Source: Nemertoderma westbladi | Taxonomy: Eukaryota > Animalia > Xenacoelomorpha | Direction: 5' to 3' | DNA: 64,000 bases | NCBI GenBank assembly: GCA_032718475.1 | Contig: JAUCBJ010007809.1 | Coordinates: 1 to 64,000 of the forward strand | Part shown: positions 1-48,262 of the stretch, piece by piece | How positions within the stretch are numbered: position 1 is the stretch's first letter | Layout of the letters: each line of letters begins with the position of its first letter | Notes under the pieces: generated by a model | Databases searched by the model: none | The model's input: the letters and a program-made list of their open reading frames with translations, nothing else | Told to the model about the DNA's origin: nothing | Program-made: the position numbers and the translations under genes

Positions 1-275
1 GCCAGACGGTCAACCAGACATGTTACTAGACAGCCAACCAGACATTTTGCCAGACATATCACAAAATGTTCCATCAGACGCTAGTAACACACTGACAAAC
101 AGTAAAGCCGCAGTTTCCCTATTGGAGCGGCCTTCTATTGACAAACAACCAGATACGTTACCAGACGTATCGCCAGACACATTACTAGACAGTCGACTAG
201 ACATTAGTAATGTATCGACTAACAATAAAGCCGCAGTTTCCCTATTGGAGCGGCCTTGTATTGACAAACTACCAA
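1..275 (+). repeat. In-frame repeats in the Pol linker (123-bp duplication plus CCAGAC sub-repeats)
   Basis: AAAGCCGCAGTTTCCCTATTGGAGCGGCCT at 104 and 227 (AAVSLLERP twice); repeated PDxLPD. Confidence 0.8.
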
Positions 276-2173
276 TTTTGACACACTTGAGCAACCATAA
301 GCATGGTGAAACCTCATGTATTGCAGATGTGGGTAGTACCTACGCTAATGTAAATACAGGTGTTACTTTGCGCTCAAGAGACATACCGAACTTACAACCT
401 GTGGTGAGACCTGGGATTAATGTCGGCAGAAAATTAAGTTTTCCAAAACCTGCTGACCCCATAGAGTTCAAACCACCATTAACGATCGACTTACAAAGTA
501 CCGACAATCAAGGTAAGAAGACAAAGAAGGACAAATTACTTGTAGACCCGGACGGATCAACAGTCAACAAGGGAATACTTACCGGCGGACCCGTGGGCCC
601 TTCTAGTAATTCAAAACCTTCCAAAATTTCCATTGACTTACCTGATGACGTCACAAATACTTATGTCGACCGTATTGTAAACCTAACAGATTCTTGGTCA
701 AACGCTTGCCGAAAACTAGCGTGGATTGTACGTTTTGTACAATACGTTAAAGGCAAACGTGACTTTACACGTCGACTTACATTGGCTGAGATTGACAGGT
801 GTGAGATTAAATTAATTCGCCATTACCAACTGCGATATTTCGCGCGCGAATTCACATCTATAAATCAAGGTCAACCAATCAAGTCGTCACCAATACTGAG
901 TTGGAGTCCGATTATTTATAATGGCTTAATTTGTCATAAATCTCGGCTTCAAAACATTGACTTTAACACAAACTTTAGGTACCCAATAATAATACCGCAA
1001 CACCACGAACTACAACGTGCAATGATACTGGACGCACATTTACATCTGAAACACGCTGGAAGACACCACTGTCTTTCCTACTTACGTACTAGATTTGTAT
1101 TAATTAGACCCAGTAAAGCATTAAGTTCAGTGACACGTACGTGTATTATTTGTAAAAAGGTACATTCTAGAATAGGTACCCAAGAAATGAGTGAACTACC
1201 ACAAGCACGACTTCAAGCATTCAAACCACCTTTTACAGAGACTGGAATTGATTGCTTTGGTCCCATACATACGAAACGTGGACGTATACTAGTAAAACGC
1301 TGGGGACTGATTTTCACATGTATGTCCAGTAGGGCAGTTCACATCGAACGTGTGATGGATCTTTCCACCAACGCGTTTATACTAGCACTGCGGCGATTTA
1401 TCGCTAGACGCGGACTAGTAAAATGCTTGTACTCAGACCAAGGGACAAACTTTGTTGGTGCTCGGAATGAGATTGCTAGAGCCTTTAAGAAATTAGATCA
1501 TGATCAAATCTCGAACGAACTGCAACCTCACAAGATTGTTTGGAAGTTTAATCCTCCAGATAGTCCTTGGAGAGGCGGAGTCTGGGAGAGACTGATTAGA
1601 TCTATAAAGACAGCCATGGCAAAGGTCATTCCAGTAAACCACATATTAACAGACGACCAACTGACAACATTGTTTGTTGAAATCGAGGCAATACTAAATA
1701 CTAGACCAATAGTATTAGTACCCGATGACAAACAATCTCAGTTTGCTTTGACACCGGCACACCTGCTAATGCAGGCACCGACGACTTTGACACCGATTTC
1801 TATTCCAATAGAAAGCGACAGCTACGGTAGAAAAGCGTGGAAAATCACGCAACTACTAGCTAACAAATTCTGGGAAATATGGCAAAACCATTATTTGCCC
1901 TCTATTTCTGCCAGAACAACTTGGTACAATAACACCCGCGCATTAAAGCCGGGAGATCACGTGCTGTTGGCAGAAGTGAATCTAAAAAGACGCTTCTGGA
2001 TAACAGGTGTCATTTTAGCCACACATCCATCTATGGATGGAGTGACAAGAACTGTGACGGTACGAACAATTGACGGTCGTACAGTTGACAGACCGACTCA
2101 ACGTCTCGTACTTCTTGAAGAGACTCGTAACGAGTCTGGAGACTACAAATCTCCAACTAATACTAGTAAATAA
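20..2173 (+). CDS. pol: Bel/Pao Pol C-terminus: low-complexity linker, integrase (HHCC zinc finger + DDE core), C-terminal Pao domain; 5'-partial
   Basis: AHLHLKHAG..CIICKK, TGIDCFGP, RAVHIE, YSDQGTNF, GGVWERLI, LNTRP, FWEIWQNHYL..LKPGDHVLL..DGVTRTV are Bel/Pao integrase motifs. Confidence 0.93.
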   Translation: MLLDSQPDILPDISQNVPSDASNTLTNSKAAVSLLERPSIDKQPDTLPDVSPDTLLDSRLDISNVSTNNKAAVSLLERPCIDKLPILTHLSNHKHGETSCIADVGSTYANVNTGVTLRSRDIPNLQPVVRPGINVGRKLSFPKPADPIEFKPPLTIDLQSTDNQGKKTKKDKLLVDPDGSTVNKGILTGGPVGPSSNSKPSKISIDLPDDVTNTYVDRIVNLTDSWSNACRKLAWIVRFVQYVKGKRDFTRRLTLAEIDRCEIKLIRHYQLRYFAREFTSINQGQPIKSSPILSWSPIIYNGLICHKSRLQNIDFNTNFRYPIIIPQHHELQRAMILDAHLHLKHAGRHHCLSYLRTRFVLIRPSKALSSVTRTCIICKKVHSRIGTQEMSELPQARLQAFKPPFTETGIDCFGPIHTKRGRILVKRWGLIFTCMSSRAVHIERVMDLSTNAFILALRRFIARRGLVKCLYSDQGTNFVGARNEIARAFKKLDHDQISNELQPHKIVWKFNPPDSPWRGGVWERLIRSIKTAMAKVIPVNHILTDDQLTTLFVEIEAILNTRPIVLVPDDKQSQFALTPAHLLMQAPTTLTPISIPIESDSYGRKAWKITQLLANKFWEIWQNHYLPSISARTTWYNNTRALKPGDHVLLAEVNLKRRFWITGVILATHPSMDGVTRTVTVRTIDGRTVDRPTQRLVLLEETRNESGDYKSPTNTSK

Positions 2174-2728
2174 TTAGGAGTTTACAAATAGATTTCCACG
2201 TACCTGTACACTGTAGTAAAGACAGCGGTAGAATTCCATTGTCTTTATATGTGAACATTGAGGGTAGTACCCTTATGTGTCACATAGGAGCGGGATTTGT
2301 AGGTATAAGAAATGGAATTCTACTTGGAACTCACAATATTGAGACATTTTCGAAATTTTAGACAATCCATTTGGATTTGAAAAATTTTTAAAATTTTCTC
2401 CAGTGAATAGATTTCAGGGTACAGTCGGGTGGAACTTAAAATTAGAGAAACAAGAGAGGAAGACTTGCGAGCCTTTCTTAAAAATTTTAATTAAATTTTA
2501 CACGGTCTTGTTTCAATAAGTTACGTCAATAAATAGACTCCCCTATATTTATTACTAATTCTTGACTGCTTATTTTCTGATAATAGTTTGGGATCAAAAA
2601 GTGAGTATTTTAGACTCACGGCCAGTTTAGCCCAAATTCGTTTTTATTTCGGCAAAAAATTTTAGATAAGAAGCAGCGTGTCATTAAAGAAACCCTAGAT
2701 CTTAGGCTATGGGTAGGAGGTTAGAGCG

Positions 2729-4538
2729 TTGTCGAAGCCCAAAAGGCAGACGAAACTCTCACGTCTCCTCACAACTAACCACAAACTCTGTTGTATTCCC
2801 TCTAGTAGTAATGATTATGTAACTACACCTCTAATTATGGAGAAAGGGATACAAAGAGAGCCGAGATGGGGATATGATATCCAAGAGGAGGCGGCAGCTT
2901 CATTCGAACGATTTGGAGCAAAAGACTACACTATATTTGGTATAAAGGAATTATCAGAAAGTACAGCGAAGCTCGCAAAGACAGCAATGCCTTTACTCGA
3001 GCAGGATTTAGCATATTTCGAGACGTGTATCTTCGCTGTGCGGGATCTCTTATCGAAAGACCATCTATGTTTACATTGTTACCCTATGAAGGAGAACGTA
3101 TCGTGGAGATTACGGATGAATCACGGCAGACGCGTGCGCCTATCAGTCACCTTGGTGATGAATTCGAAGTAACTACTACGATCGCCGACGATCCTTTAGA
3201 GGAACTTCTTGAGATAGAAAGGAACCTCCCGAAGAAATCTCAGACGGAGATTCGACAACTTGAAGCAACAGATGCTATAGTTTGTATACAACCTTCAGAA
3301 ACCTACCAACCCATAGACCCAGATGATTACGATTATAGTATGGGAGGAAGCGCTCGACCGATTGGAGATCTTATATACGAACGAGTGTGGTACCCTGCCA
3401 ATACGATGTGTAGTAAATGTGGCGTCGCTGGACATCATATGACAAAGTGCAGTGGAAAGCACATTACTACGATTCAGCTAATCTGTGGATGGTGTGGGGA
3501 TCAAGGGTCTCATACCTTTTATACTTGCTGGAGATTTATGGCTCAATGTACTTACTGCAATATAAAAGGACATCGAGCATCTGAATGCCAACTAAGAGAC
3601 ATACCTTATGAACACGAATCTGTAAAACTCGTGAGGAAGTTATTTGATGAGTGGGAAGATTTAGCCGACGAACATGTATCAGCACAAAGAAGACGGTTTC
3701 CGATGAGAGCGCATCTCGGATTTTGGGCGGTAAATCCCCAGACGATGATGTCGGAAGGATATATCTCCGCTATGCCCCAATATGACGAACTTATCGAGGT
3801 TGTCGATATTTTGCCCCACGACAGCGGATTCCGAGTGGTGCGCGAGTATCTGTTACAAATTCACCCGGATAACAAAACACGTGGAATTTTCAGAAAGTCG
3901 TTAATCGGATTACGTATGGTGAATTCGATCGTTTCCGAACTGAAAAGCGGAACAAGGGAGCTTGGTTGACCGTCGCATGGGCGTACCGAGCCGCGTTTTA
4001 CCACAAACGTATACGAGCGAGCGTATTCGAGGAAGAAGAGGTCCTAGAGGCGACGAATATATCAGCCACTCCGGTTGCGCCGTCTGCACGTCACCCTCGG
4101 GAGGACGGACAGGGTAGGATCATACGGGTCCAGAAAGTGGGCCAACAATTGAAGAAAATTATTAATGTAGAAGAACGCAAGGGAGTTGAGCCGACTATTC
4201 GAGTTACTCGGGATACGGTATCACTTCCAAGAGAACCAGTAGGAGGATCGGGACATACACCAGCTGATCAACAGGGGGCGCAAGCTACTCTTGGGTCTGC
4301 GTCGTCCACTTCTCGCGCGTTCCCAGACGTTCTACCAACTGTAGTGACGACTGATCGGTCACGAGGAATCGGTCGAGGTTTTGGGATGCCAAATAGACGA
4401 ATTTGCGAGGAAATAGTCGCACCGTCTCTCAACGTCCCAAGTAAACCAGTGACTCGCCCCATTAGTCCCATATCGCGAGCAAAGTCACCTGTGCGCAGTT
4501 TTCGAGGACGCGGCAGGGCTCGATCCACTAAGCGATAA
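2729..4538 (+). pseudogene. Accessory 3' ORF of family A (split over three ORFs): degenerate DEDDy-exonuclease-like C-half + 3 CCHC knuckles + FDEW..QRR..GF module + basic tail
   Basis: GYDIQEEAAA..FGIKELSE..PLLEQDLAYFETCIFAVRDL; CSKCGVAGHHMTKC, CGWCGDQGSHTFYTC, CTYCNIKGHRASEC; LFDEWEDL..QRRR..LGFW. Knuckles are clear; the exonuclease call is by eye. Confidence 0.65.
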
Positions 4539-4558
4539 AAGGGAGGGCAAGGGTGGAC

Positions 4559-5200
4559 GGAAGACTCGTGAGCCTTTCTTATGATTTGTGATTTATTTTG
4601 AATTATATGTTTTATATTTAGAAAGTTTTGTATTCTGGACGAAAGACTCATATTTAGTAAAACTTATATTTAGTAAAACTTATATTTTATATTTGTGCTT
4701 ATTCCGAACTTATGCAATTTGTATTGTTCCGAATTTATGAAATTTAGAGTGTTTATATTTAGAAGGAACTTATATTTGAAAGATTTATGTTTCATATTTG
4801 AAGATGCAAAGGAGTTTATATTATTCTAAACTTATGCAGTTTATATCTATATTTAGTAAGACTTATATTTGTAAGAATTTATATTTTATATTTGTGATTA
4901 TTCCGAACTTATGCAATTTATATTATTCCGAACTTATGCAATTTATATTGTTCCGAATATTATGCGATTTATATTTTATAAGCAGTATTTGTATTTACAG
5001 TGAAATAGAAAGTTTTATAGATAGAAAATTTTGTGCTCAGAAAGACTCATATTTGTAATTATTCCAAACTTATGCAATCTACATTTAGGTACGAAAGTAT
5101 TTGTAATTACTTGAATTTATGCAATATTTGAGATGCAATAGTAGATGGAAGACTCGCGAGCCTTTCTTATTGTTTTCATTTATTTGTATTTGTAATTGTT
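4559..5200 (+). repeat. AT-rich degenerate tandem repeats in the family A 3' region
   Basis: Recurring TTATTCCGAACTTATGCAATTT and AAGACT(C/T)ATATTT units. Confidence 0.7.
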
Positions 5201-5461
5201 TAAATTTATGCAATATTGAGATGCAATAGATTTATATTGGTGAATTTAATTTAGATTTATATTGTACTTACTTAGTAAAGCCTTAAATACGTAAAGTTTG
5301 AATTTGTAAGTATTTTGTATCGAATCATTACGTAGAAAGGAAGTATTGTTTGAAATTTAATTGTAAATATGTAAGTACGCCCTAAGTATTCTATAGTTTG
5401 ATTGATTATTGGTGAAAACCGTATATTTTATGCACGATAATATCCTGTTTTCATGGAGCGG

Positions 5462-7382
5462 TATAGAATTATATTCCCTAAATGCCGTGGATTTTCAAAA
5501 TTTTATTTTGTTCGGATTGGCTTTGTGGGGATTGCTTTGAGTTCTCATTCGTATTGGTTCTATCATTTGTGCATCTGTCGGTCAGGTGGTTCGGTGGCTC
5601 AGTTGGTGGAGCGTTGGAAATTGTATGTGTAGTGGGTATCGAGTTCGAGTCCTGGTGGGTGCGGGTTGTTTTTTGTGCGGGGTTTCAGCTCGTTTGGGTT
5701 GGCCGCTGCGGGTTGGTTGCATTTATCTGTGCCGGTGGGGCTGTGGTTGTTTGATTGTAGCCAATGTCGTGCAAGTTATGTGTTGGCTGGACCGGTGGCT
5801 GTCTTTGGGGCCTTGTTGGAGCCTATGGAACAATCGAGAATTTTCTCGATTGATTGCGGCGCGGGTTTGGTATGTGGGGGTGCGATTTGTTCGTTAGTTA
5901 TTCACTCTACTTCACAGATTATCTTATCAATATTCTGTCGTGCTTAGTTTATTCTCAGATTACATTGTATTATAATTGTATCTTCTGTAATAAAGTCAGA
6001 AATACTAGTCACATCTCAGCCCTTTTCTACCTGTTTTACCATGGATTCACTACGGTGAACAAACTCAGGGACAGGATGGCCGGCTAGAGATCGGGCCGCA
6101 GCAATGAACGGGAACATCACGGGAATGTAGACGAGAGACAACCCGCAATACCATCTAGAGTTATTCGCCCATCGCCTGAAAGGTTAGACAGCGTTCGATC
6201 CTTGCTACCTAAGTATAAGACCAAAAGATCAAAAGGTAGACGTAGTGACACGCTGTAAGCCTAAAATTACATCATAGGGACTGTACTGTCTTGATTCAGG
6301 AAAACCCACAGTAGACCTTCACATTCCTACGGGGGGAGGGAGAGAGAGCAGATACTAGTACGCAGATAGGACGTAGGCACACCGGTACAAGGCATACACA
6401 TTGGTTAGGGTGCAGCAAACTATACGCTTAACTCTTGCTAAGTACAGGTGCGTGTGCGACTATTTGCAGTACGACAGTGTCCATTACATCAGAACTTGTA
6501 GGCTAGGGGGGTTGCTGTGTTTTCACCTGAATTGGGATTGTACCGTTCAGGCGGTAGGGCAGTTTACACTAGGCGCAAATAAATTGAGGCTATCAGGGAT
6601 ATACTAACATCTACCGTGTCCCCGCCAACGCCCTAATAGGAAGTTACCCGGACTACCTGGGTGACTAAAATTCTAGATAGGAGCCAGGATAGCTATTAGT
6701 ACCCGTACGCCTACAGTAGTAAACTAACACATCTCTTCTTAGTATCAGGGACCTGGTACCTAAAATTGCCGAATTCTGGGCGTAGTATTAACCTTATGCC
6801 TGAATTTGAGTCCTGGAAATACGCAAGAGGGGAAGGAACCTTATCATTCGTGAGTATTGGACCTACAAGTTACAAAATTAGAATATTCGTAAATGCACAC
6901 CGTACCCAGTAATTATATATGTGAAGGAGCAAAACTGTTTTGACCGTTCAGAATTAACACACGCGCGTTAGAAATTATTTACACCTCGAAATATATAAAA
7001 TTAACTTTGTCCGTACTGTGCTTTGCCCGCTAGTTAGACATCTCCAAATATCTGCCTCTGTACCTAGCTAGCGTCCCTTTGCCCAACCATATAAATCACA
7101 CCGCGGCAAAGTATACGAGCCTCTTAGTCCGTCAGTGAGTCAGCCTGATTTTAGGATTCGCTGCGCGGGATTTTGTTTTATCGAAGTTTGTCTGCTCGTA
7201 GACTGTTTTCTGCCTCACCGGTTATAAGAGATCGATACTGCAATATATTCGCTTACTTAGAGTTTACTGTTTTGGTGAGAAGGTCGGATTTATGATTTGA
7301 TTTACAAACTTTACAGTAGGATATTGCAGGTATTGTTACCGTCTTTTCGCATAGTAGGAATAGGCATATCTCTTCCAATACA
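5462..7382 (+). repeat. Putative long 3' LTR of family A
   Basis: Follows purine-rich ATGGAGCGG and ends in CA at the satellite. Shares AACCATATAAATCACACCGCGGCAA and TAGGATTC(G/A)CTGCGCGGG with the solo LTR at 24842-27436. Start uncertain (no TG). Confidence 0.5.
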
Positions 7383-9778
7383 TTTTGATAAATTATTGCT
7401 GAAAAACCCCAAGGATTTTGACATGGCTTTAATACTCATTATATCCATGAAATAGCTGAGAAATTTGAGGTGAATTATTGTATCACATATTAACTTTGGC
7501 TCCAGCCGCTTTGGCAATACGATGAAACTATAATAATTATTCTAGAACACAACAATATTAACAGGGAGATAGGCTACTTATCTCTTCACTCTGAGAGCCT
7601 CAAAAAGGGAGTGTTCCGACGCAATCAAAATTCATCCATCTCCAGGGGAAAGACGAAGCAAAGAACAGCTGATTACTTCTATTAATGTAAGGGTTACCTG
7701 CTCTTTTGACTTTCATTTAAGATTGTCTATCTCTTGGAGTGGGTTAGAAGTCATGAATATGAAAATCGATGTCGTTTTTTGTAAAAAATCAGAGGAGATT
7801 TTAATAAATTATTGCTGAAAAACACCTAGGATTTTGACAAGGATTTAATACTATTATATTCATGAACTAGCAGAGATATTTGATGTTAATTATTGCATTA
7901 CATATTAACTTCGGCTCCAGCCGCTTTGGCAATACGATGAAACTATAATAAATATTCTAGAACACAACAATATTAACAGGGAGATAGGCTACTTATCTCT
8001 TCAATCTGAGAGCCTCAAAAAGGGGGTGTTCTGACGCAATAAAATAACATCCATATCCATCGGAAAGACGAAGCAAAGAACAGCTGATTACTTCTATAAA
8101 TGTAAGTGTTACCTGCTCTTTTGACTTTCATTTTAGATTGTCTATCTCTTGGAGTGGGTTAGAAGTCATGAATATGAAAATCGATGTCGTTTTTTGTGAA
8201 AAATCAGAGGAGATTTTAATAAATTATTGCTGAAAAACACCAAGGATTTTGACAAGGATTTAATACTCATTATATTCATGAACTAGCTGAGATATTTGAG
8301 GTGAATTATTGCATTACATATTAACTTTGGCTCCAGCCGCTTTGGCAATACGATGAAACTATAATAAATATTCTAGAACACAACAATATTAACAGGGAGA
8401 TAGGCTACTTATCTCTTCACTCTGAGAGCCTCAAAAAGGGGGTGTTCCGACGCAATCAAAATTCATCCATCTCCAGGGGAAAGACGAAGCAAAGAACAGC
8501 TGATTACTTCGATAAATGAAAGTTTTACCTGTTCTTATGACTTTCGTTTAAGATTCTCTATCTCGTGGATTGGGTTAGAAGTTATAAATATGAAAATCGA
8601 TGTGGTTTTTGAAAAAAATCTGAGGATATTTTGATAAATTATTACTGAAAAACCCCAAGGATTTTGACATGGCTTTAATACTCATTATATCCATGAAATA
8701 GCTGAGAAATTTGAGGTGAATTATTGCATCACATATTAACTTCGGCACCAGCCGCTTTGGCAATACGATGAAACTATAATAATTATTCTAGAACACAACA
8801 ATATTAACAGGGAGATAGGCTACTTATCTCTTCACTCTGAGAGCCTCAAAAAGGGGGTGTTCAGACGCAATCAAATTTCATCCATCTCCTGTGGAAAGAC
8901 GAAGCAAATAACAGCTGATTACTTCTATAAATGAAAGTGTTACCTGTTCTTATGACTTTCGTTTAAGATTCTCTATCTCGTGGATTGGGTTAGAAGTTAT
9001 AAATATGAAAATCGATGTGGTTTTTGAAAAAAATCAGAGGACATTTTGATAAATTATTGCTGAAAAACCCCAAGGATTTTGACATGGCTTTAATACTCAT
9101 TATATCCATGAAATAGCTGAGAAATTTGAGGTGAATTATTGTATCACATATTAACTTCGGCTCCAGCCGCTTTGGCAATACGATGAAACTATAATAATTA
9201 TTCTAGAACACAACAATATTAACAGGGAGATAGGCTACTTATCTCTTCACTCTGAGAGCCTCAAAAAGGGGGTGTTCCGACGCAATCAAAATTCATCCAT
9301 CTCCAGGGGAAAGACGAAGCAAAGAACAGCTGATTACTTCTATAAATGTAAGTGTTACCTGTTCTTTTGACTTTCGTTTAAGATTCTCTATCTCATGGAG
9401 TGGGTTAGAAGTCATGAATATGAAAATCGATGTCGTTTTTTGTAAAAAATCAGAGGATATTTTGATAAACTATTGCTGAAAAACTCCAAGGATTTTGACA
9501 TGGCTTTAATACTCATTATATTCATGAAATAGCTGAGAAATTTGAGGTGAATTATTGTATCACATATTAACTTCGGCTCCAGCCGCTTTGGCAATACGAT
9601 GAAACTATAATAAATATTCTAGAACACAACAATATTAACAGGGAGATAGGCTACTTATCTCTTCACTCTTAGAGCCTCAAAAAGGGGGTGTTCCGACGCA
9701 ATCAAAATTCATCCATCTCCAGAGGAAAGGCGAAGCAAAGAATAGCTGATTACTTCTATAAATGTAAGTGTTACCAGT
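7383..9778 (+). repeat. Satellite array, ~415-bp monomer, ~5.7 copies (orientation A)
   Basis: GGCAATACGATGAAACTATAATAA recurs at about 7514, 7929, 8344, 8760, 9175 and 9592. Confidence 0.97.
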
Positions 9779-9899
9779 TCCTTCTCCTTTCTCTTACTCT
9801 CTTTCTATTATTTTTATTATTTTTATTTTTTTTATATTTGTGTGGGAAGGGCGTCTCGCCCTCAATCCCACCCCCCTCAGTCCAACATTTGGATGACTA

Positions 9900-12800: not shown

Positions 12801-15340
12801 CAGTATGTCCTGCAGTCTGTATGTGACCCTCCGGACCGAATTTTAACCTTCTCGAATAATCCAAGAATTCCTCCCCGCGGCTACCGTACATCCGATCGGC
12901 AGTTACATCCCGTCGGGAAGTTTATCTTCGATCCCCTCTCCTATTCTCGTCCTCGTACTGATACTCTCTGTACCCCTCTCTCGGCGTATAGTACACCTTG
13001 CCAGGTCGCGTCTCTCCGGGGCGACAGCATTCTCCCGGAGTTCGACCCCACCGACTCTCCAACTCCATTTCTACTACTGACGGCTCGCTATCCATCCTCG
13101 CTCTTCTGTCTCTCGCAACAATACTTCTTCTACTCTCTTCTCTCCTTCTCTCTTCAGTGTAGCGTTCCCGCTCCTTCCTCCGTTCCTTCCCTATTCTGAC
13201 TGGGCTCGATGTCTTGTCGCTTGCCCTCTCGTGACATCAACCTCTCTCTCTCTATCCGGCCGCACGCCACTGGGGATACTCGTAATCTCCCTACTATTCT
13301 CCATCGCCGGGTGCTGTGGTTAACCTAGTTTGCCCCACGCATCATCCGCCGACACCTGTGGGGCACTCTCTGCCCCCCCCCCCTCTCGCCGCTAATCTCT
13401 CATTGTGGGGCTCCTGTAGCCCCCCCCCCCCCCAATTGCCACCTATCACTTCACTATCTCTCACTTCGCTTCTACGCCCCTCTCTAGTCGACACACTATT
13501 CCTACCGTGGCTGGGTCTATTCATCCCCGCCTCTCCCTCTATCACTGTGTGGCCTGGCAGGCCCCCGCCGGGTTGACACAACCCCGCTACTCCCTGCATA
13601 TCAACTACGTGGCCTACCAGGCTCCCATTGGGGTCTCTCACCCCCGCTACTTCCTGCGTACTGATTATGTGGCCTACCAGGCTCTCGTTTCCCGGGCCAC
13701 CTACATTTGCCGCATTTATATTAATAGCGCCATTTATTTTCTAAATTATTTAAATTATTAGAATTGTTCCGTACTGAATTTGGATTATTATTTAAATTAT
13801 TTTGTATATTTGAATTGGAATCGGGATTATTTTGTTCGTTTGAGTTAAAATTACTATTTTGTATATTTAAATAGATTATTAATAGATAGATAATTATTTG
13901 AATTATTTTCTACATTTAAATTAGGATCGTTCGGATTTAAATCACTATCATCGGGCAAAATATTATTTCCTGCCATGAAAGTTTGATTAGGGCTGTCTAT
14001 TAATATTAACGTTCTCTAACATATTATTATTACCCCCCCCCCCCCCCCCCCCGCCTGTACGATTACACCAGTCTTGGGTCTGTCGTCTGGTCCATGTAAG
14101 TGGGGTATTAACAAACGTTTCCATAACTTCCGGCTCCTCGTAAACACTAGCCGAGCCAGCCTCACTCTCTGATAGCCCCATCCGCACCAATTCTAATCGG
14201 CGCTTCTGTTTGGCCTGATACTGCATAAGCCCCCTTAGCCGGGCATGCATATCATCCCGCATACGTTTTCCCGCTCTCTCTCTCTCTCTATCCTCCCGTA
14301 AACTTTGGTCTGCAAATTCTACCTCTCTCGCCTCCGCCCGCTCTCTACGTTCATTCATTTCCCTCACTTCTCGTTCTTTGCGCTCCGATTTCTCCCTCTC
14401 TTCTCACTCTCCACAGTTCCAGGCCACCCTCTCGGCCCTCTCTTTACACTCCCTCGCTAACTCTCTTTCTTTCTCTAGCAACGCAGTTCCCTCATCCAAC
14501 TGCCTCTCCAATTCTTTCTTATCTAGCGACACCATGTCCAACTGACATGCCAGATCTATCTCCAACACCTTTTTGCTTTCGCGGAGGATGTAGCGGACTT
14601 ATCGGTCACGACGGACTCCCGTCGCCTCTCTGTCCTACTAACTTTCCCCTGCTTTCTGGGGTTCTCGCTAACCGACGAGATCGAATCCTCGGGGTTAACC
14701 TCGGATTCCCCCTCGTGCGGGTCTGCCCAACCCACTAACTTAATTCCCCTAGCATCCACTAAATACGGCCCTATGTACACCACTTGGGGCTCCATTATCC
14801 CGGACCGCCACAGTTCAAATAGTTTGATGGGGACCCCCCTCGCTCTCTCACTCGCTTTTTCTCCCTGCCCAAAGCGAACTAGGTATCTAAAGTGTTTGTT
14901 CGACTCACCTAGTTGCTGGCTTAACTTCTTCTGGTCTACCTTTGCTCCTTGTTTGGCCTCTTTGAGCTGCTTCTTCGTCGCGTTGTAGGCTCGTCGGAGC
15001 CGGTCACTGGTTCCAACATCCTCGTCGTCAACCTCGCCTCCTCCCCTCCTGGTTAGGAGTCGTACCGGCCGCCCCACCATCACCATTCCAGTGGGCTGTC
15101 CGTCACCCTCGGCCTGTGGCTGGCCAGCAACATCGGTACTTCGACTCCTCCTCTCGTTGTGGTAGACGGCCGCCCTCCGCTTGGGCTGCCGGATCGTCTC
15201 TCTCCGGCGAGTCCGGCGTTGCGGGTCGATACCATCGCATCGCAGCCTCACGGATCGTTTTGTTTGTATCGTCCGGGGTCCGCGGCGGTGTCGTCTCTTC
15301 CTCTAGATTTCGGGGCTCCGTACTCATCTTTTTATCTCTC
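9900..15340 (-). pseudogene. gag-pol: Bel/Pao family B gag-pol remnant (RT, RNase H and most of integrase not recognisable)
   Basis: ORF fragments 14556-15251, 13987-14367, 12132-12413, 11109-12113 and 10666-10896 are colinear with the full-length copy. Confidence 0.85.
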
Positions 15341-15786: not shown

Positions 15787-16896
15787 TTAGAGCCCAGCAT
15801 GGACTCCCGTAGAGGAGTACTTCCAATTCTTCGGTGACTTCCAAATCCTGGAAAGCCTATTCAAGGCTGCCCATGCCTTTCCCTTACGTATTCGAAGGTC
15901 CTCACCTGAATTCCGGATCCATGATCTCAGGTAACAGAAGTCGTCCACATGCTCAAGCATACCATCCTTTGAGCTTATGCTCATCCGATCAGAGACTTGC
16001 TGAGGACTTTCAAAGTTAACTGTCAGAATTTTGGTCTTTCTGGAGTTAATAAAAAGACCAACACTAGAAGCAACATGTTCTAATGAGCTGAGGAGCCATT
16101 GGGCTCCCTCTAATGATTCTGAGAGTACTCCTAAGTCATCAGCAAAGTCTAGATCAGTTAGGAACTTGGCAGGATTTCCTCGACTTCTGGAGCCAGTAGG
16201 TGGAGTTATCATCACCCCATCATCATTATAATGATCTAAGGACATGCGTAGAACATAGTCAACCACAATAATGAACAAGAATGGTGCAAGTGTGTCTCCT
16301 TGGAGGATGCCCCATAACACTTCAAATGGTTCTGTGTCACCGTCAACAGTAGACAAAAATGTTGTCGAACCATCATATACTGATCTGATTGCTGCAATAA
16401 TTTCATCAGGAATCCCATATAATGAAAGTATGCTGAACATATGTGAGCGAGAGACTGAATCAAAGGCCTTGAAGAAGTCAACAACGATAACAGCCAGATG
16501 CCTGTCTTTCTTTTTTGATAACTCTTCAATTATCCTTCTAAGTGCCAAAATGGGCTCCATGGTCCCACGACCTTTACAGAACCCATTCTGATTTCCACGA
16601 AGTAGTCTCTCAAAGGGATCCCTGATGAGATTTAATAGAATCCTATTGTATAGCTTTGCAGCAATCGAGATCAATGAGATTCCCCAAAAAGAACCATAGA
16701 ATGTTAGGTTGCCCTTCTTGGGAACTAGCACAAACTTATTTGTTTTCATTTCTTGTGGGACTCTTGTTGTTCGGAACATGTCTACTATGATGGGATAGAT
16801 GAGCTTTAAACACTCAGGTATTTTAAATACCTCAGGGGGAACACCATCTACTCCACTGGCACGATTGGTCTTAATGCTCTTTGCAGCAGCCTTCAC
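15787..16896 (-). pseudogene. LINE reverse transcriptase domain
   Basis: ASGVDGVP, PKKG, NQNGF, DFFKAFD, QGDTLAP and FADD motifs. Confidence 0.92.
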
Positions 16897-17221
16897 TTCT
16901 GCAAAGGAGATATTGCCAATGGGAATATCTGGGAGTACAGACTCAACACTTTTACTTCTATAAAGTTATCAGGCAATACCCTATCATTATTGAGGAGCTT
17001 TTCAAAGTGGGCTTTCCAACCATTGAGGCGATCGGCTGGTGATTCAGCCTTAACCTTGATGGTTGATTGGCTTTTCCGCCCAGTAACCAGATTGACAGAT
17101 TTCCATGCCTGGGATAATTGCCTGCTGTCGTCAGCATCATTGATGGCATCAACCTGTTGGTTTATTAGCTCCTGTAGATTAGCAGAGTACTGCCTGTTCA
17201 GGGACCTAGATGCAGCCTTAA

Positions 17222-18143
17222 GGGGGGGGGGGGGGGGGGGTACCCCCTCCTTGGGTCAAATTTTCACATTTTGGGTTTTCTATTTCATCTGATGCAGAAT
17301 TTAATGGGGAGTTCAAATCTTGAAACAGTTTGGCGGGATCTTTTTTAGTTCTCGAGTTATCGCTGTCTTTCCGTCTTTCAGTTTGTCCGTCAAAATTTAG
17401 GAGACAGACAGACAGACATGCTGTCAGACAGACATATTAGATACCACCAAACATTAAAACAGACATCAGAAATGAAATCACCGACCCCGAAAACCCCCAT
17501 ATTGATAATTTTAGTGAGTTGGTATGACGACATAGTGTCAAACATTACTGACCGTTAACAGACTACAGACAGTCAGGTTTGAGCGGGAAGGTTCAAATTT
17601 TAAAGCAAATTATCTCGGAATTACATTTCACGATATTTCCATTTTTCAAAATACTACTCCTCCACTATTTTTGAACCAATTTTCATAATTTTTTTATACA
17701 TTGGTGTTGCATCTGTCAGTAATAAAACATACTTGCCACATTTTTTTATTTTTATTCCTAACTGCTCCAATGTGGCATTTTTCATGATAAAACCCATATT
17801 TTTAAGTGAAAAATAATATTTCTAATTATAAAATGAAAATTAAATCGAAATTTTATTTTCTGCCAAGTATGTTTCATGTGCAGAACCGTCCTGAGGAAAA
17901 TAGTGTTAATTTCACCAAATTTGTACCAAAACCTACGGAAGAGTAGCGTTTTAAGTGAATTTTGCATTTGCGCACCTGCCCGCTAGAGGGCGACGTAAAA
18001 TTACAAATATTTTGTTTATGATCATTATTTGACCTCCCTGTGGTTGCTCGAACCCCACAAAAGATACATAGTTACATTCAAAGTAGTAGTAATGGCCATG
18101 AAAATATAGGGTATTAAGGGGGGGTACCCCCCCCCCCCCCCCC
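17222..18143. mobile_element. Non-autonomous DNA transposon with TTAA TSD and G-rich/C-rich termini (Kolobok-like)
   Basis: TTAA at 17218-17221 and 18144-18147; termini G(n)TACCCCC / GGGGGTAC(C)n. Removing it rejoins the LINE frame (NAVK|AASR). Purine (GG) termini with TTAA fit Kolobok rather than piggyBac. Confidence 0.8.
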
Positions 18144-19403
18144 TTAACTGCATTCTTGGCTGCTGTAGTCTGTTTGAGCTGGGACTCTTTCTGCGCCTTA
18201 TGAAGATCATTTCGGCACTTCTGAATTTTGTTGTCAGTCCAGGGGGCCCTTTTCCTGTTTCGAGGGTATACAGGAACTGTTTCTGCAGCTGCTAACTTAA
18301 CTGGTTCTGTAAAGGCAGTATATCCCGAACAGTGATCTGCCGCCTCAGAGGCAAGAGCCTCATACCTGTTGCTCAGCTGTAGTGTAAAGCTGGATCTCAC
18401 ACTTGGCTGTTGCAACAGAGAGGACCAGTCATGCCGCGGCAAGGCAGATTTCGTTGTTCTGCTAGCACGCAGACTAAGTCTTACCTTGGCCACAATAAGG
18501 CGGTGATCACTGGAGAAGGGTCGAAGTGTAAATGCAATACAGTCTTGTATAGAGCTCCTGTATTTCCTACGAAACAGAATATGGTCTATATGGGACTTGT
18601 GACCACTGGGTCCACTATGAGTCCATAGCTTTCCAGTTCGCTTCTTGAACTGGGTTCCAGCCGAAAACAATCCATTTCCAGAGATAAAATCCTAAAGATG
18701 GGCAGCATTTCGGTTAACACTATTGCTATAGACCCAGGGCGATGTAGGTGATTGATGCAGACTTGCATTAAAGTCTCCCAGGAATGTTAAGAATGCATGC
18801 TGATCCACTCCATCAGGATAACTGACCGGTAAATGAGCTATGCTGATAATATATGCTCACTCCTACACTATTACGGCCTTGGTACCTAGCGGATGCTCTC
18901 TTCCCTGTCCCTGATTGGATAATGGTGCATCCATGTAGGATGTTACTATTGTAATATATGGCTCGCCCCTTTACTTACATATATTATGGTGTCGGTGTAA
19001 GATTTATTGTTGTACAGCAGTACTGTGGTTATCTCTATTATTATACTTATTGCTGTATTGACTGCACTATATATATCAGCTTTCTATGGCGCAGTAATCT
19101 GGACTTACCTACCCTATAGGCCTACTTGAATACAGCATTATTATAGATGAGAATTCAAGTTAAGGACCCCGGTAGATACGCCATACGGGCATCATTCCCA
19201 GTGTAGGGGGGCAGGTCCTAGCCTTTCAAATTCATGAGGAACAGCCTGGCGTCCTACCCTTAACGAAGGGCGAGAATATCACCTCGTGCCTCCCTCTCTA
19301 CGGCGATGCCGAGTCAAACCCGCCACCTTAAGGGGGAGACAAGCACTACGGCTTAGCTGCCCTAAAAGTTGACGGTATAATCCCGTCTCTGGTCGATCCG
19401 GCA

Positions 19404-21560
19404 ATGGTGAACCTAGACGATACACTAGAACTTAATTTGGAGGATATCGAGAGCATGGACAGAGCGACCCTCTTTCAGCACTGTGCAAATGCAGGAATAC
19501 GAACCTCGGTGAAAGACTCATCCCTGCGTCTTCGAGGTTTACAACACCGTTACCTGAAAGAAGGTGTCGATAACAGCGCAACGGACGAGGTTAAACCCAA
19601 CCCAAACTCGGATCTCGTACAACTACTCCATCATATGGAGATGCAGCGTCAAGCCGAACGCGAGGAATTACACCTCGCATGGCAGGCGGATGAACTCCGT
19701 CGGCAGGCTGACCGCGAAGCGGACAAACTCCGCTGCCATGCTGAGCGTGAAGAACTACTACTCCTAATTCGCGAACACGGTCCCCACACAGTGGGACAAG
19801 CTGACAGACGCGCCCCCAAGAGTCCTACAGTCCGACTTCAGGTGCGGATGCCAGATAAACTGGAAAGGGGAACCAAATATTCGACCTTCCAACAGTGGCG
19901 TACTGCTTGGAGAAATTACAGCACAGTTACACATCTCCAGGATAAGCCCCGTGAGAAACAAGTCGCCACCTTTTATACATACTGCAGTAATGAAATGTTA
20001 ATCGATTTACGACATCTAATGGATGTGGAGCCAGACACCGGACTATCCGTTGACAATATTTTAGATCGCATACACGTCTATATTCGGGCGCAACATAACA
20101 TAATGGTGGACAGATACCAGCTTATAAAAATGAGACAATCAGAAGGACAGACATTCGATGAATACCTTGCACGCCTTAGTGAAGCATTTGACGATGCTGA
20201 AGTCGCACAAATGAACATGGATGACTGGCGTCAAACTATAGTTGTTTGCGGGATTAACGACGATAAAACTTGGGAGGAAATTTTCGGAAAACATCCACAA
20301 TTGAACTACGCTGAGACAATCGAGTTCTGCCGCACTCAGGAGGTTGCCAGCAGAGAAACACAACGTCTACAATGCCGCGTGGATGTGGTAAACCAAACCG
20401 ATGCTCAGCGTGGACGCACACAAACTCGATTTAAAAGCCGTTACCAACGCGACAAACTTGGGGACAACAGCCCACGGCGACAGGCTATATCCAGAGACGC
20501 CTACCAGAATGCGAGACAGCAACAAGTGGAGACTGGAAAGTGCATGAAATGCGGCGACCCTGTACCACACAGTGGGCACTGCAAAGCGGAAAATGCAACA
20601 TGCAACATATGTGGTCGGAGGGGTCACTACCAGAAATTCTGTATTGCTGGAGTAGTAGGAAAACCGGCACAGATCAGCGGAGAAATTTCTTTCGCAATCT
20701 CCGATATAACGCGTTACACAGAGGATCGTTGTCGTCCATATATTGCCGTTGATTTCCATATACCTGCAGGCGACGGTGTGGCATGCAGCGAATATTTAGC
20801 AAACTGCATGTGTATCCCTGATACCGGCGCACAGGTAACACTCATCAGCACATCATGTATAAACGATTGGGACTTTCCACAATATACAAAATGGCGCCAC
20901 CCGGACTACCCACTGATTGGGGCAAATAAACTCACTGTGGAATGCGACCGCTGCGTTGACCTATTACTAACTACCGGCGGAAGAACACATGCAGAAACAG
21001 AATGTTTGTGTTCACAGCTACAGAAAAACACAGCATATCTATCGCTCACTGCATGCATTGGACTAGGAATCGTACACGCGAGTTTTCCAACACCACTTCA
21101 CATCGCACCCGTGGAACAGATAGTGGATAAAGCCTCCAATCAGACATCGGAGGAGAAGGAGAAGCTCCTACAGGAGTTTAAGGACGTGTTTGATCAACCT
21201 GGAGAACTCCCAACTATGGTGGGGCAACCGATGAACATCCAACTCATAGACAGGGCGAAACCATACTGTTTAAATGCACCCAGGCAGATACATATCCCAT
21301 ATCGGAACAAAGCAAAAAAAGAGATAGATGGGATGCTGGCAAAGGGCATCATCGAACGCATTGGTGACCGACCCATAGAATGGAGCCACCCCTTAGTTAT
21401 AACCAACAAGCCAAACAGACCGGGCAAAATCCGAATGACAGTTGATCTGACCAAATTGAATTGTCAGGTTAAGCGGACAGTACACACAGCGCGATCTCCA
21501 CACGACATTATCTCACATAGAACACCAGGAGCCTGCGTGTTCACTGTTCAGTGTCCTTGA
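19404..21560 (+). pseudogene. gag-pol: Gypsy gag-protease-RT start (frameshifted into the rest of pol)
   Basis: CMKC..H..HC and CNICGRRGHYQKFC knuckles; IPDTGA protease; IRMTVDLTKLN RT motif. Confidence 0.9.
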
Positions 21561-23810
21561 TGCGAAGTCGGGGTACTGGCAGGTTGAATTAGCCGAAGAA
21601 TCACGCGAACTGACAACATTCATTACGCCATGGGGGCGATTCCGCTATTGTAGAGCACCCATGGGATTCATCAGTTCGGGCGATAGCTATAATTTTCGCG
21701 GAGATATGGCGATGGATGGCCTCTCACAAGTCCACAAAATCGTTGACGACATCCTTATTGAGGACACAAATGTCACTGAGCATCATAAGCGGGTACGAGA
21801 AGTCCTACAACGTTGCAGGGAGAATGGAATCACCATGAACAAAGACAAATTCCAGTTTTCTCAACCACAAGTGAAATTTGCGGGATATATACTATCCAAG
21901 GATGGGATTGCTGCTGATCCTGGTAAACTCAGTGCGATTAGCGAATATCCAACTCCTCAGAATATCACGGACTTGCGGAGTTTCATGGGGCTGGTCAATC
22001 AACTGGGTCATTACAGCAGCGATATCGCAATGACTGCTACCCCCCTACGTGAATTATTACGCGCGCAAAACGCGTTCGTATGGACAGCCAATCATGATGC
22101 TGCATTTACCAAAGTTAAAAAGGCGCTGATTAGCCCCCCCGTACTAGCGCCCTTCGACATAACCCGAGAAACCCGCCTTGAAACAGATGCCAGCAGGCTA
22201 TATGGCTTTGGATTCGACCTCCAACAACTACATGGTAACGACTGGAATATAGTCGCATGTGGGAGCCGATTCCTTTCCGACCCGGAAACACGGTATGCGG
22301 TAATAGAGTTGGAGAGTATCGCAATTCATTATGCCATCTCGAAGTGACGACTATATCTTGCTGGCTTACCCGAAATTCACCGTTGTCACTGATCACCGTC
22401 CTCTGTTGGCAATTTTCAATTCATACAACCTCGATCAGATCGCAAGATACAAAAGATCAAGGCAGATTTACAATCAAGATACCAATTTGAATTAATATGG
22501 CAAAAGGGAAAACAACATCGCATCGCAGATGCACTTAGGACTACGAGCTGCAGCACGCGTCGATCCAGAATTCCATCAACTCATTGAAAACATTCGGGAC
22601 GACTTCCGCAAAGTCCACACTGCACCACCTTCGGTACAAGAATACCGGTCGATCAGCGACAATTTGTTATTATACAACAATGACCTGGTATTGTTTGGGG
22701 ACCGCCGCCTGGTAATACCAAGGTCACAGAGGAGCGAAGTTCATAAACAACTACACACCCCTCACCTCAGAGTCACTAGGACAAAACAGCGCGCGTGAAG
22801 TAGCGTCTATTGGGCCCGGCATCAATGCCGATATTGAACGCATGGTTAGCCAATGTGACACCTGTCAGGGAGTACTACCCAGCCTCTCCAAGGAGACATT
22901 ACAGACAGACCCTGTACCCAACCGCGCATTCCAATCCGCTTCCTCTGATCTATTCGAACTTGGTGGAAAACACTTCCTGGTATATACAGATCGTTACTCC
23001 GGCTTCCCTATAGTGGCGGAGTGGAACGCCGATCCATCTAGCCAGCAGTGTGTTAATGTAATAAGGAAATGGTTCACTGACACAGGCGTGCCAAATATTC
23101 TGCGCACAGACGGCGGCCCACAGTTTGCCGCAGAAACATTTAAAACGTTCCTCAAGCATTGGGGAGTTAGATGGCAACCAAGCACCCCGCACTTTCCCAG
23201 TAGTAACGGACATGCGGAGTCAAGCGTAAAGCAGATAAAAATGCTACTACGAAAACTCCAGAACCTGAGTATTCATTCCGAAAAGTTCCAAGAGGGACTT
23301 CTGGAGTACCGGAATACTCCACGGTCCAATGGGCGCTCCCCGAACGAGATCGTATATGGCCGACGACTAAGAACCAGACTACCTTGCCACCACTCTAACT
23401 CTAAACAATTGTGGCAGGAAGATGTTAAGCGCGCGGATCAAAAAGCCACGGATCTGCACGGACTACATGCGGAACAATACAACCGATCTGCGAGAGATCT
23501 GAAACCACTTGCTGTTGGTGATCAGGTCCGGATACCGGACCATACCTCTAAGAAATGGACCCATATTGGTCAGGTCGTTGAAGTTGGGAAACGGAGGGAT
23601 TACCATGTTAAACTCCCATCTGGATGCATTTGGTGGCGAAACTGGCGATTCTTACGCCCCTACCACCAACCGCCGTCATCACGGACTGAAACTGGAATTA
23701 ACTCAGAAACAATGCTGGTAGTAGGACCACGACGAAGTACACGCAACAACCGCCAACAAACCGTCCGTTTCGGCGAAACCGAAACTCGAACCTTCACCCC
23801 ACTGTCATAA
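21558..23810 (+). pseudogene. pol: Gypsy pol (RT, RNase H, integrase) with stops, frameshifts and a deletion
   Basis: DAKSGYWQ, KIVDDIL, ETDAS, YAVIELE, DRYSGF, TDGGPQF, SNGHAE, YRNTP. Confidence 0.9.
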
Positions 23811-24273: not shown

Positions 24274-24841
24274 TAATCAACTGTTATTTGCTACGTCTTT
24301 CCACTGGAGATGGATGAATTTTGATTGTGTCAGAACACCCCCTATCTGTGGCTTTCTGAGTGGAGAGATAAGTAGTCTATCTCCCTATTAATATTGTTGT
24401 GTTCTAGAATATTTATTATTGTTTCATCGTATTGCTAAAGTGGCTGGAGCTAAAGTTATTATGTAATGCAATAATTCACCTCAAATATCTCAGCTATTTC
24501 ATGAACATAATGAAGTATTAAAGCCATGTCAAAATCATTGGTGTTTTTCTGCAATATTTTATCATAATATCCTCTGAGTGTTTTCAAAAACCATATCGAT
24601 TTTCATATTTATAACTTCTATCCCACTCCACGAGATATAGAATCTTAAATGAGCGTCAAAAGAACAGGTAACACTTACATTTATAGAAGTATTCAACTGT
24701 TATTTGCTACGACTTTCCGCTGGAGATGGATGAATTTTGATTGTGTCAGAACACCCCCTACCTGTGGCTTTCTGAGTGGAGAGAAAAGTAGCCTATCTCC
24801 CTATTAATATTGTTGTGTTCTAGAATATTTTTTATAGTTTC
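24274..24841 (-). repeat. Satellite, orientation B (~1.4 monomers)
   Basis: Reverse complement of the 7383-9778 monomer. Confidence 0.95.
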
Positions 24842-41485: not shown

Positions 41486-42778
41486 AATACGATGAAACTA
41501 TAATAAATATTCTAGAACACCACAATATTAACAGGGAGATAGGCTACTTATCTCTCCACTCAGAAAGCCACAGAAAGGCGGTGTTCTGACACAATCAAAA
41601 TTCATCCATCTCCAGCGGAAAGACGTAGCAAATAACAGCTTATTACTTCTATAAATGTAAGTGTTACCTGTTCTTTTGACGTTCATTTAAGATTCTCTCT
41701 CTCGTGGAGTGGGATATAAGTTATAAATATGAAAATCGATATGGTTTTTGAAAAAAATCAGAGGATATTTTGATAAAATATTGCAGAAAAACACCAGTGA
41801 TTTTGATATGGCTTTAATACTTCATTATGTTCATGAAATAGCTGAGATATTTGAGGTGAATTATTGCATTACATAATAACTTTAGCTCCAGCCACTTTAG
41901 CAATACGATGAAACAATAACAAGTATTCTATAACACAACAATATTAATAGGGAGATAGGCTACTTATCTCTCCACTCATACAACCACAGATAGGGGGTGT
42001 TCTGACACAATCAAAATTCATTCATCTTCAGCGGAAAGACGTAGCAAATAACAGCTGACTACTTCTATAATTGTAAGTGTTACCTGTTCTTTTGACTTTC
42101 ATTTAATATTCTCTATCTCGTGGAGTAGGATAGAAGTTATAAATATGAAAATCGATATGGTTTTTGAAAAAAATCAGAGGATATTTTAATAAATTATTGC
42201 AGAAAAACACCAGTGATTTTGATATGGCTTTAATACTTCATTATGTTCATGAAATAGCTGAGATATTTGAGGTGAATATTGCATTAGTTAACTTCAGCTC
42301 CAGTCACTTTGGCAATACAATGAAACTGTAATAAATATTCTAGAACACAACAATATTAACAGGGAGATAGGCTACTTATCTCTCCACTCAGACAGCCACA
42401 GATAGGGGGTGTTCTCACACAATCAAAATTCAACCATCTCCAGCAGAAAGACGTAGCATATAACAGCTGATTACTGCTATAAATGTAAGTGTTACCTGTT
42501 CTTGTGACTTTCATTTAAGATTCTCTATCTCTTGGAGTGGGTTAGAAGTTATAAATATGAAAATCGATATGGTTATAGTAAAGAATCAGAGGATATTTTG
42601 AAAAATTATTGCAGAAAAATTCAAAGGATTTTGACATGGCTTTAATACTTCATTATGTTCATGAAATAGCTGAGAAATTTGAGGTGAATTATTGTATTAT
42701 GAGTTAAGTTCAGCTCCAGTCACTTTGGCAATACGATGAAACTATTATAAATATTCTAGAACACAACAATATTAACAC
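41486..42778 (+). repeat. Satellite array, orientation A (~3.1 monomers)
   Basis: Same monomer; ends at an inversion junction. Confidence 0.95.
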
Positions 42779-45044: not shown

Positions 45045-45589
45045 TGTGACGGGATCCAGATGGGATCCCGGTTTATCCGGTTTGTCAGTTCACGCGTCCC
45101 CGCCGTGTGTGAAGAGTAAAAGAGTTTCGGATGTTCGACGTGTATAATGTTTGGGTATATGGATGTAGATACGGTATAATGGTGGACAAAGTTATTGCAT
45201 ATGGAAGGTGGGAGACGGTAATTGAAATCCCGGTACTTCCCTAACTAAACTATTGTAAGCTACAGTAACACCAGTAACTAGCACTGAGATAACTGAACTG
45301 GTATGATTACAGGTTACTGGTTATATTGCACGGTGGCCTTATTGCTACTCAATCGATGCCTTTCCCCCCTCCTGATTGGTTGATACCCTTGTTGGCGCCT
45401 TTGGAGTGATCCCCTTCACTCCACCTGTTCTCTCTGGGTTAGGGGTTTGGCCCCTGACCCTCATTGTGTGGTTCACCTTCCCATTTTGTTGGGGTGACAC
45501 GAGTTGGTTATTACCCCAATCTCGTGGCCCCCAATATTGCTTATCGGCTTAACTTTTATGGGATGTTAGCGGGATTGAATAAGCTAACA
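45045..45589 (-). repeat. 3' LTR (subtype a)
   Basis: TGTT..CACA on the minus strand; direct repeat of 58770-59314. Confidence 0.97.
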
Positions 45590-48155: not shown

Positions 48156-48262
48156 ATTTATATAATTTTATTTTATATTTTTTTGTGTGGGAAGGGCGTC
48201 TCGCCCTCAATCCCACCCCCCTCAGTCCAAAACTTGGACGATTAAACTCTTCTCTAACTCCA

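Follow-up and report, generated by a model that had tools for sequence, protein, structure and literature searches.

A post-pol accessory coding region in a high-copy Bel/Pao retrotransposon of Nemertoderma westbladi, with a main product that is probably nucleocapsid-like rather than an exonuclease

What is encoded between pol and the 3′ end of a Bel/Pao retrotransposon when further reading frames follow pol? The question is raised by positions 2729 to 4538 of a 64,000-nucleotide stretch of Nemertoderma westbladi DNA (assembly GCA_032718475.1, contig JAUCBJ010007809.1, positions 1 to 64,000 of the forward strand; hereafter the window). The window is eukaryotic DNA rich in retroelements and opens within the pol open reading frame (ORF) of a Bel/Pao element, here called family A. 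An original prediction, made from the letters alone, held that family A and a distant second family, B, share an accessory gene behind pol, with three CCHC knuckles, a conserved module after them and, in family A, a catalytically degenerate DEDDy exonuclease ahead of them. From the present analysis it is probable that 2837–4538 is accessory coding sequence, placed after pol in a high-copy Bel/Pao element, and that its main product is a nucleic-acid-binding, nucleocapsid-like helper and not an exonuclease.

Both families belong to Bel/Pao, as both have Pao-type pol domains. In the Pfam comparison, family A pol matched DUF5641 (E 3.4e-21) and Integrase_H2C2 (E 1.6e-4), and family B pol matched Peptidase_A17 (Pao; E 5.2e-40), DUF1759 and an integrase domain. 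The integrases of the two families are 31 % identical over 352 amino acids. The part of family A that lies in the window starts inside pol, with the 5′ long terminal repeat (LTR) beyond the window edge, and has a candidate polypurine tract followed by TG at 4537–4555. Behind pol, an ORF scan found no forward-strand ORF of at least 60 amino acids between 2361 and 2717. After this spacer come three overlapping stop-to-stop ORFs on the same strand (2717–3172, 2878–3969 and 3873–4538), each in another frame (Table 1).

Contigs of four public runs were aligned to 2100–4700 at a likeness of at least 80 % (3145 contigs in run X1, 1100 in X2, 204 in X4 and 9 in X5). Runs X1, X2 and X4 share one organism code and were taken as DNA; X5 carries another code and was guessed to be RNA. 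A second alignment covered 2690–3290 (532, 192, 22 and 5 contigs, respectively). In X1 and X2, the depth of the accessory part across 2100–4622 (33,000–104,000) is of the same order as that of the pol end (85,809 at 2100–2186), and in X4 the accessory part is about ten-fold deeper than the pol end. Because the depth is like that of pol, and because contigs tile the pol end, the spacer and the ORFs, the accessory part belongs to the element and family A is a high-copy family. This bears on the suggestion that no gene of the element lies here at all, and that the region is either a nested foreign insertion or decayed filler between pol and the LTR. On both sides of the 2.1-kb block there is a 23-nucleotide motif preceded by a purine-rich run, reminiscent of the scar of an insertion or a template switch at an earlier polypurine-tract/LTR junction, as such a suggestion would have it, but pol-like depth in thousands of contigs and the frame-specific excess of synonymous variants described below are at odds with it, and the scar, if real, favours an old acquisition and not junk. 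Filler or foreign sequence is therefore a very improbable account of the region.

The three ORFs were examined for coding by comparison of the copies. At 3873, most of the depth has a one-letter length difference from the window (13695 of 20703 in X1, 26215 of 37320 in X2, 2769 of 4355 in X4 and 3.68 of 3.68 in X5), therefore most copies have frames 1 and 3 as a single continuous ORF of some 490 codons (3067–4538), and it is the window copy that is broken. Variants were classified codon by codon and compared with the same types of substitution placed at random (the null); for 3291–4538 the variants are the best-supported 40 of 87, making the counts there partial. In 2837–3066, six of ten variants leave the amino acid unchanged when read in frame 2 (null 2.9, P 0.038), as against one of six in frame 1 and three of ten in frame 3. 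In 3067–3872, frame 1 makes 11 of the 19 listed changes synonymous (null 5.65, P 0.009), the other frames giving 6 of 19 and 2 of 19. Likewise, six of the eight changes listed for 3874–4538 are silent when read in frame 3 (null 2.5, P 0.015), as against four of eight and none of eight in the other frames. No synonymous excess was found in control frames in any of six tests. As each stretch has its surplus of synonymous variants in its own frame and in no other, the region is coding sequence under purifying selection.

A diverged sub-family of A gives a second view of frame 2. It departs from the alignment near 2967–2986 and rejoins at 3035 or 3098, and a reading by hand shows six successive third codon positions in frame 2 (2968–2983) at which its letters are not those of the window, each change being synonymous. 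Along with the variant counts, this places coding in frame 2 as far as 2983 or beyond and in frame 1 from about 3100 onward, with frame 3 as the continuation of frame 1. Between 2967 and 3098 the sub-family has unlike sequence, with 19 letters in place of 118 in one contig and at least 255 letters onward in others, an observation that bears on how the two ORFs are linked.

In the second alignment, length differences are listed at 2735 and 2830 only, both upstream of the ATG at 2837. As there is no length difference between frames 2 and 1, their overlap is a property of the bulk of the copies and not damage to the window copy. The two frames may be two overlapping genes, or a frameshift or small intron may link them. 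In the latter case the frame 2 ORF and the knuckle ORF could be a single gene, joined in the message through a small intron or a programmed −1 frameshift, with a protein starting at 2837; frameshifting is common in Bel/Pao and retroviral genes. Such a join would suit the coding signals, which in frame 2 extend to 2983 or further and in frame 1 start near 3100, the bulk of copies having the same length in between, as well as the overlap of the two ORFs over 2878–3172. However, by eye there is no canonical X XXY YYZ slippery site in 2984–3172, GT..AG candidates of the right length either cut constrained coding sequence or are 35 nucleotides long, an X5 contig spans 2989–3138 without a gap, and frame 1 has an ATG of its own at 3067. 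A joined gene is unlikely.

The main accessory protein of family A has knuckles of the form C-x2-C-x4-H-x4-C at 3409–3450 and 3547–3588 and of the form C-x2-C-x5-H-x4-C at 3484–3528. Two are thus exact copies of the zf-CCHC (PF00098) spacing C-x2-C-x4-H-x4-C and one has x5. The frame 3 tail, of 221 amino acids, has an isoelectric point (pI) of 11.3, 40 lysine and arginine residues and eight RG/GR dipeptides. The A and B proteins have no hydrophobic, signal-like or transmembrane segment anywhere along their length (maximum 19-residue Kyte–Doolittle mean 0.94), and they are therefore not envelope proteins. The three knuckles and the basic, RG-rich tail would bind RNA or complementary DNA of the element. 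The protein, which would come from a sub-genomic or spliced message, would serve as a second nucleocapsid or RNA chaperone, or alternatively as an RNA-export or anti-silencing factor.

The likeness to Gag nucleocapsid is one of motif and flank. In retroviruses and LTR retrotransposons the nucleocapsid has C-x2-C-x4-H-x4-C knuckles with basic flanks, as here, and RNA binding or chaperoning is, to judge from these motifs, the likely activity. Unlike it, the accessory protein is the product of a separate post-pol gene and has three knuckles within about 490 residues that also include acidic and RG-rich parts. The accessory protein scores 26 bits against the Gag knuckle of its own element family and 34.7 bits against the accessory gene of the other family; family B knuckles match HIV nucleocapsid chains weakly (E 0.07 and 0.41).

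The exonuclease fared differently. All the strings quoted in the original prediction are present where it placed them, but they are spread over three frames, which it did not note. The supposed nuclease stretch, GYDIQEEAAA..AYFETCIFAVRDL, sits within 2837–3060 in frame 2 (stop-to-stop 2717–3172). A DEDDy domain has the motifs ExoI (DxE), ExoII (D) and ExoIII (Y-x3-D) over roughly 150–200 residues. The frame 2 ORF has at most 111 codons, and even in the alignment first proposed there is a Cys at the last catalytic Asp. Copies of the spacer differ by one-letter length changes at 2480, 2529, 2607, 2735 and 2830; with no upstream ORF and with the changes at 2735 and 2830, there is no coding ahead of 2837 and hence no place for ExoI and ExoII. 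For 2837–3172, Pfam gave no family at E≤1, a phmmer search of PDB sequences at E≤10 gave no exonuclease (the one match is a U1 small nuclear ribonucleoprotein, E 0.96), and the ESM Atlas gave no exonuclease lead, recognition of the query being low. A single-sequence AlphaFold2 model of 2837–3172 has a mean predicted local distance difference test (pLDDT) score of 39.4, too poor for a fold search. There is no exonuclease in the family B accessory ORFs either.

A degenerate DEDDy exonuclease is thus recognized by none of Pfam, the PDB sequences and the ESM Atlas, and the exonuclease reading was rejected on these three, on the length of the ORF and on its frame, which does not match that of the knuckles. 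How easily short motifs match is illustrated by 13 residues at the start of the frame 2 ORF, which align with the WGFN region of family B at a score reached in 14 of 2000 shuffles (218 of 2000 with cheaper gaps); this match is about as good as the motif on which the exonuclease had been based. The claim of a dead exonuclease falls, and short-motif matches are weak evidence here. A further idea formed by eye, that the frame 2 ORF is a duplicate of the post-knuckle module, was also discarded, its score being reached in 2445, 872 and 558 of 3000 shuffles.

With the exonuclease goes much of a broader proposal, in which A and B inherited vertically an ancient cassette made up of the C-terminal half of a dead DEDDy exonuclease, the knuckles and the FxEW module, the cassette defining a Bel/Pao sub-clade and family A keeping RNA binding only. 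It has a precedent in the DEDDy-type ORF3s of Juno and Vesta in bdelloid rotifers (PMC5408684); moreover, 2837 to about 2990 does code, and the position and layout of the gene are common to A and B. Set against this are an exonuclease that is not recognized in any of the three libraries, with a model at pLDDT 39, an ORF of no more than 111 codons with no coding upstream, a frame unlike that of the knuckles in the bulk of copies, family B accessory ORFs that are without the exonuclease, and an A stretch that matches another part of B about as well. The proposal in this form is most improbable.

Are the accessory genes of A and B homologous? It was correctly predicted that family B carries a three-knuckle post-pol gene, with RIFEEWADV..QRRK..WGFN after the third knuckle (near 39.7k on the forward strand and 62.9k on the reverse strand). 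The genes occupy a common slot, behind pol and after a spacer of 0.7–1.1 kb. Both have three knuckles, with a linker of six residues between the second and the third, and FxEWxD soon after the third. They also have in common an acidic and then basic layout, with pI 4.1 (A) and 4.9 (B) before the knuckles and 11.3 (A) and 9.8 (B) after them. BLASTP of A against B gave 34.7 bits (E 1e-6, 23 of 82 residues identical), mostly from the knuckles, and hhalign gave a probability of 69.8 % over 49 columns that include two knuckles and end at FxEWxD. The score of the post-knuckle module alone is reached in 74 of 2000 shuffles, and in 21–102 of 3000 across six scoring schemes. The pre-knuckle parts of A and B show no similarity (1117 of 2000 and 1952 of 2000 shuffles reach the score). 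The notion of a shared cassette therefore holds for the layout and for selection, seen in both families, but the FxEW..GF alignment is only marginal (p about 0.01–0.03).

These results leave room for a different history, in which the genes of A and B have no common ancestry, each family having separately captured a CCHC gene (from the host, from ORF1 of a long interspersed nuclear element (LINE), or from another gag), and FxEW..QRR..GF is alike by chance. Similarity that is marginal outside the knuckles and absent ahead of them is what separate capture would leave, and capture of ORF3s is recurrent in rotifer elements (PMC5408684). A plant-gag-like CCHC protein scores 40.0 bits against A, above the 34.7 bits of A against B; as a generic CCHC protein outscores B, the similarity of the knuckles is generic. 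The spacing of the knuckles differs as well, with 11 residues in A and 9 in B between knuckles 1 and 2, and x5 against x4 in knuckle 2. On the other side, separate capture would have to arrive twice at the same slot, the same number of knuckles, the six-residue linker, the same place for FxEWxD and the acidic-then-basic layout. Furthermore, with integrases only 31 % identical, a faster-evolving accessory gene is expected to be barely alignable, and poor alignment is thus no surprise. Separate capture is possible, if rather doubtful; on grounds of parsimony, a common origin of the two genes, whether inherited or passed from one element to another, seems slightly more likely than not.

A more specific form of the shared-origin reading can be put forward only tentatively. 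In it, A and B carry one old third gene, encoding a three-knuckle, RG-tailed RNA-binding protein and preceded in A by a short overlapping ORF; this would be a non-envelope gene that defines a Bel/Pao sub-clade, and its product might serve as a further nucleocapsid, help to export RNA, or be a decoy for the small-RNA silencing machinery of the host.

Family B supplies a complete element in which the position of the gene can be seen. Copy 2 (45037–59314, minus strand) has LTRs of 553 bp (45037–45589 and 58762–59314) that are 99.1 % alike and have TG..CA termini. The element also has a polypurine tract and is bordered by a 5-bp target duplication. The accessory ORF of copy 2 (47147–46272) lies about 1.1 kb behind pol, clearly within the stretch bounded by the LTRs. 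In comparisons of sub-families, dN/dS is 0.24 for the acidic part with the knuckles (190 and 145 codons), compared with 0.12–0.17 for gag-pol, and the B accessory gene is under purifying selection. The post-knuckle part has three synonymous and seven non-synonymous differences, in a comparison of just two 96 % identical copies that is uninformative. In the other copies the gene is damaged. In copy 1 it is split within the second knuckle by a 2.7-kb insertion (36936–39620), and in copy 3 it has a stop and a frame change. The insertion in copy 1 has inverted terminal repeats of about 430 bp (36936–37360 against 39620–39188) with 90.5 % identity.

Relatives of the accessory proteins were sought in several collections. 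Word-indexed searches at E≤0.01 found no relative among 291 candidates for the A protein, 126 for the C-terminal part of B and 2369 for the N-terminal part of B. HMMER against 1.84 billion representative proteins gave six matches at E≤1e-3 and none at 1e-10, with no true homologue among them. Four of the six are generic CCHC proteins, and two are repetitive proteins (1932 and 2576 residues) matching the acidic part; one of these two was checked and the other inferred from its listing row. A metagenome scan yielded two loci only, bacterial ATPase-like ORFs with one common 8-residue word, and no relative; a scan of viral contigs likewise gave no relative. For the post-knuckle part, the ESM Atlas had no usable match. 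The libraries are poor in unannotated animal repeats, and their silence is no proof of confinement to one lineage.

Several of these observations weigh against a nucleocapsid-like accessory protein. The function proposed for the main protein is read only from motifs and composition. Its third knuckle reaches 18.3 bits with the Pfam zf-CCHC model, below the gathering cut-off of 20.8, and in the two family B ORFs scanned Pfam found no zf-CCHC at E≤1. The AlphaFold2 single-sequence model of the main ORF is unusable (pLDDT 38.2), both A models thus being below 40. The variant counts for the knuckles and the tail are in large part those of the partial set. The lack of a true homologue in the HMMER search and the better score of a generic CCHC protein belong here too. 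Finally, B copy 2 is without about 540 bp (46255–46290 compared with 62416–62988), a loss that takes away the last part of knuckle 3 together with all of the FxEW module; the post-knuckle part may be dispensable in cis, or it may have been lost after insertion.

Among known systems, the closest in concept are the ORF3 genes, other than env, that LTR retrotransposons of rotifers carry as cargo. The ORF3s of Juno and Vesta (DEDDy exonuclease, GDSL esterase, and coiled-coil (CC) and transmembrane (TM) ORFs) are likewise non-env third genes behind pol, specific to a family, kept by the element and possibly exchanged between lineages (PMC5408684). In contrast to them, the present gene is in Bel/Pao, has CCHC knuckles and a basic tail, and has no detectable enzyme domain. 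Bel/Pao elements are described as consisting of gag and pol, to which an env-like gene is added in some cases (ICTV profile PMC8742986, survey PMC3118150, and PMC13524379), examples of the env-like kind being F-like in Roo and Chuviridae-like glycoproteins in mosquitoes (PMC13524379). The env-like third gene takes the same slot, from pol to the 3′ LTR, as the accessory gene of A and B, but the A and B protein is without a transmembrane segment, rich in knuckles and cytoplasmic or nuclear-looking. A search of the literature, supplements and Repbase lying outside it, found no Bel/Pao element described with a third gene that bears knuckles.

Knuckle-bearing proteins are also found in other retroelements. 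The ORF1 proteins of Jockey/I-type LINEs have CCHC knuckles and are non-enzymatic and RNA-binding. They resemble the accessory protein in being knuckle-bearing RNA-binding proteins of a retroelement, but theirs is the 5′ ORF of a LINE. No sequence similarity to Jockey/I-type LINE ORF1 was found in an all-against-library search, which was not aimed at membership. In a high-copy family, a selected third gene whose product is rich in knuckles and is not a membrane protein would be a new kind of cargo for Bel/Pao. It would extend to this group the picture from rotifers, that LTR retrotransposons acquire and keep helper genes, and it would provide a case in which to consider the role of a second nucleic-acid-binding protein, in packaging, in export or in defence against silencing.

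How family A may have gained the gene is suggested by the 23-nucleotide motif, which has three matches (2458–2480, 4559–4581 and 5147–5169) where none is expected by chance. The copies at 2458–2480 and 4559–4581, each after a purine-rich run, flank the 2.1-kb accessory block. The stretch 4537–4581 may hold the polypurine tract and the beginning of the 3′ LTR, and the first motif copy could be the scar of an old pol/LTR junction that took up the gene. RNA structure at the three motifs is no better than in shuffled sequences (z-scores −1.34, −1.00 and −0.13), and Rfam has no match within positions 1–7400.

Table 1. Features of family A and its accessory region in the window
Feature	Positions	Strand	Basis or frame
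Family A pol ORF, 3′ part (integrase; cut by the window edge)	2..2173	+	Pfam DUF5641, Integrase_H2C2
Non-coding spacer from pol to the accessory region (about 660 nucleotides, without long ORFs), with the first 23-nucleotide motif copy behind a purine-rich run	2174..2836	+	
Short upstream ORF, 111 codons from ATG 2837 (the 'exonuclease-like' stretch)	2837..3172	+	frame 2
Main accessory ORF, first ATG 3067; acidic part, three knuckles and post-knuckle module; stop of the window copy at 3967–3969	3067..3969	+	frame 1
Three CCHC knuckles	3409..3588	+	pattern scan
LFDEWEDL..QRRR..HLGFW module	3640..3726	+	frame 1
Frame break of the window copy, where frames 1 and 3 meet	3870..3876	+	
Basic, RG-rich C-terminal tail; continuous with the frame 1 ORF in most copies	3873..4538	+	frame 3
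Purine-rich tract (4537–4553) directly after the stop, TG at 4554 and second 23-nucleotide motif copy (4559–4581)	4537..4581	+	
Third 23-nucleotide motif copy, within an AT-rich, internally repeated region	5147..5169	+	

Some further features of the two families and of their surroundings were observed. In family A, positions 2–274 of the pol ORF hold in-frame tandem repeats (a 12-nucleotide periodicity and a 123-nucleotide duplication), which give PD/QPD-rich repeats upstream of the integrase. In family B, copy 2 is 14.3 kb long, compared with the 4.2–10 kb quoted for Bel/Pao. From its 5′ LTR to gag there are about 4.4 kb with tandem and inverted repeats (54886–56473), and an ORF of 461 codons in the same stretch (57039–58424) has no Pfam match. 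Positions 14466–15151, beside another B-like copy, are 72 % identical to a stretch of this region between the 5′ LTR and gag of copy 2.

Other retroelement ORFs are found at 15787–16965 and 17951–18691 on the reverse strand and at 19332–23810 on the forward strand, an RVT_1 reverse transcriptase ORF being among them. A gag-pol-like set of ORFs with two knuckles (20541–20642) apparently belongs to a different LTR element and is without a post-pol knuckle ORF. All Bel/Pao copies in the window, that of family A among them, are flanked by arrays of a satellite with a repeat unit of about 415 bp (7382–9791, 24274–24841, 27433–29081, 41486–45022 and 59322–61207). Copy 2 of family B lies inside such an array, with its 5-bp target duplication, which could reflect either targeted integration or plain accumulation in satellite DNA.

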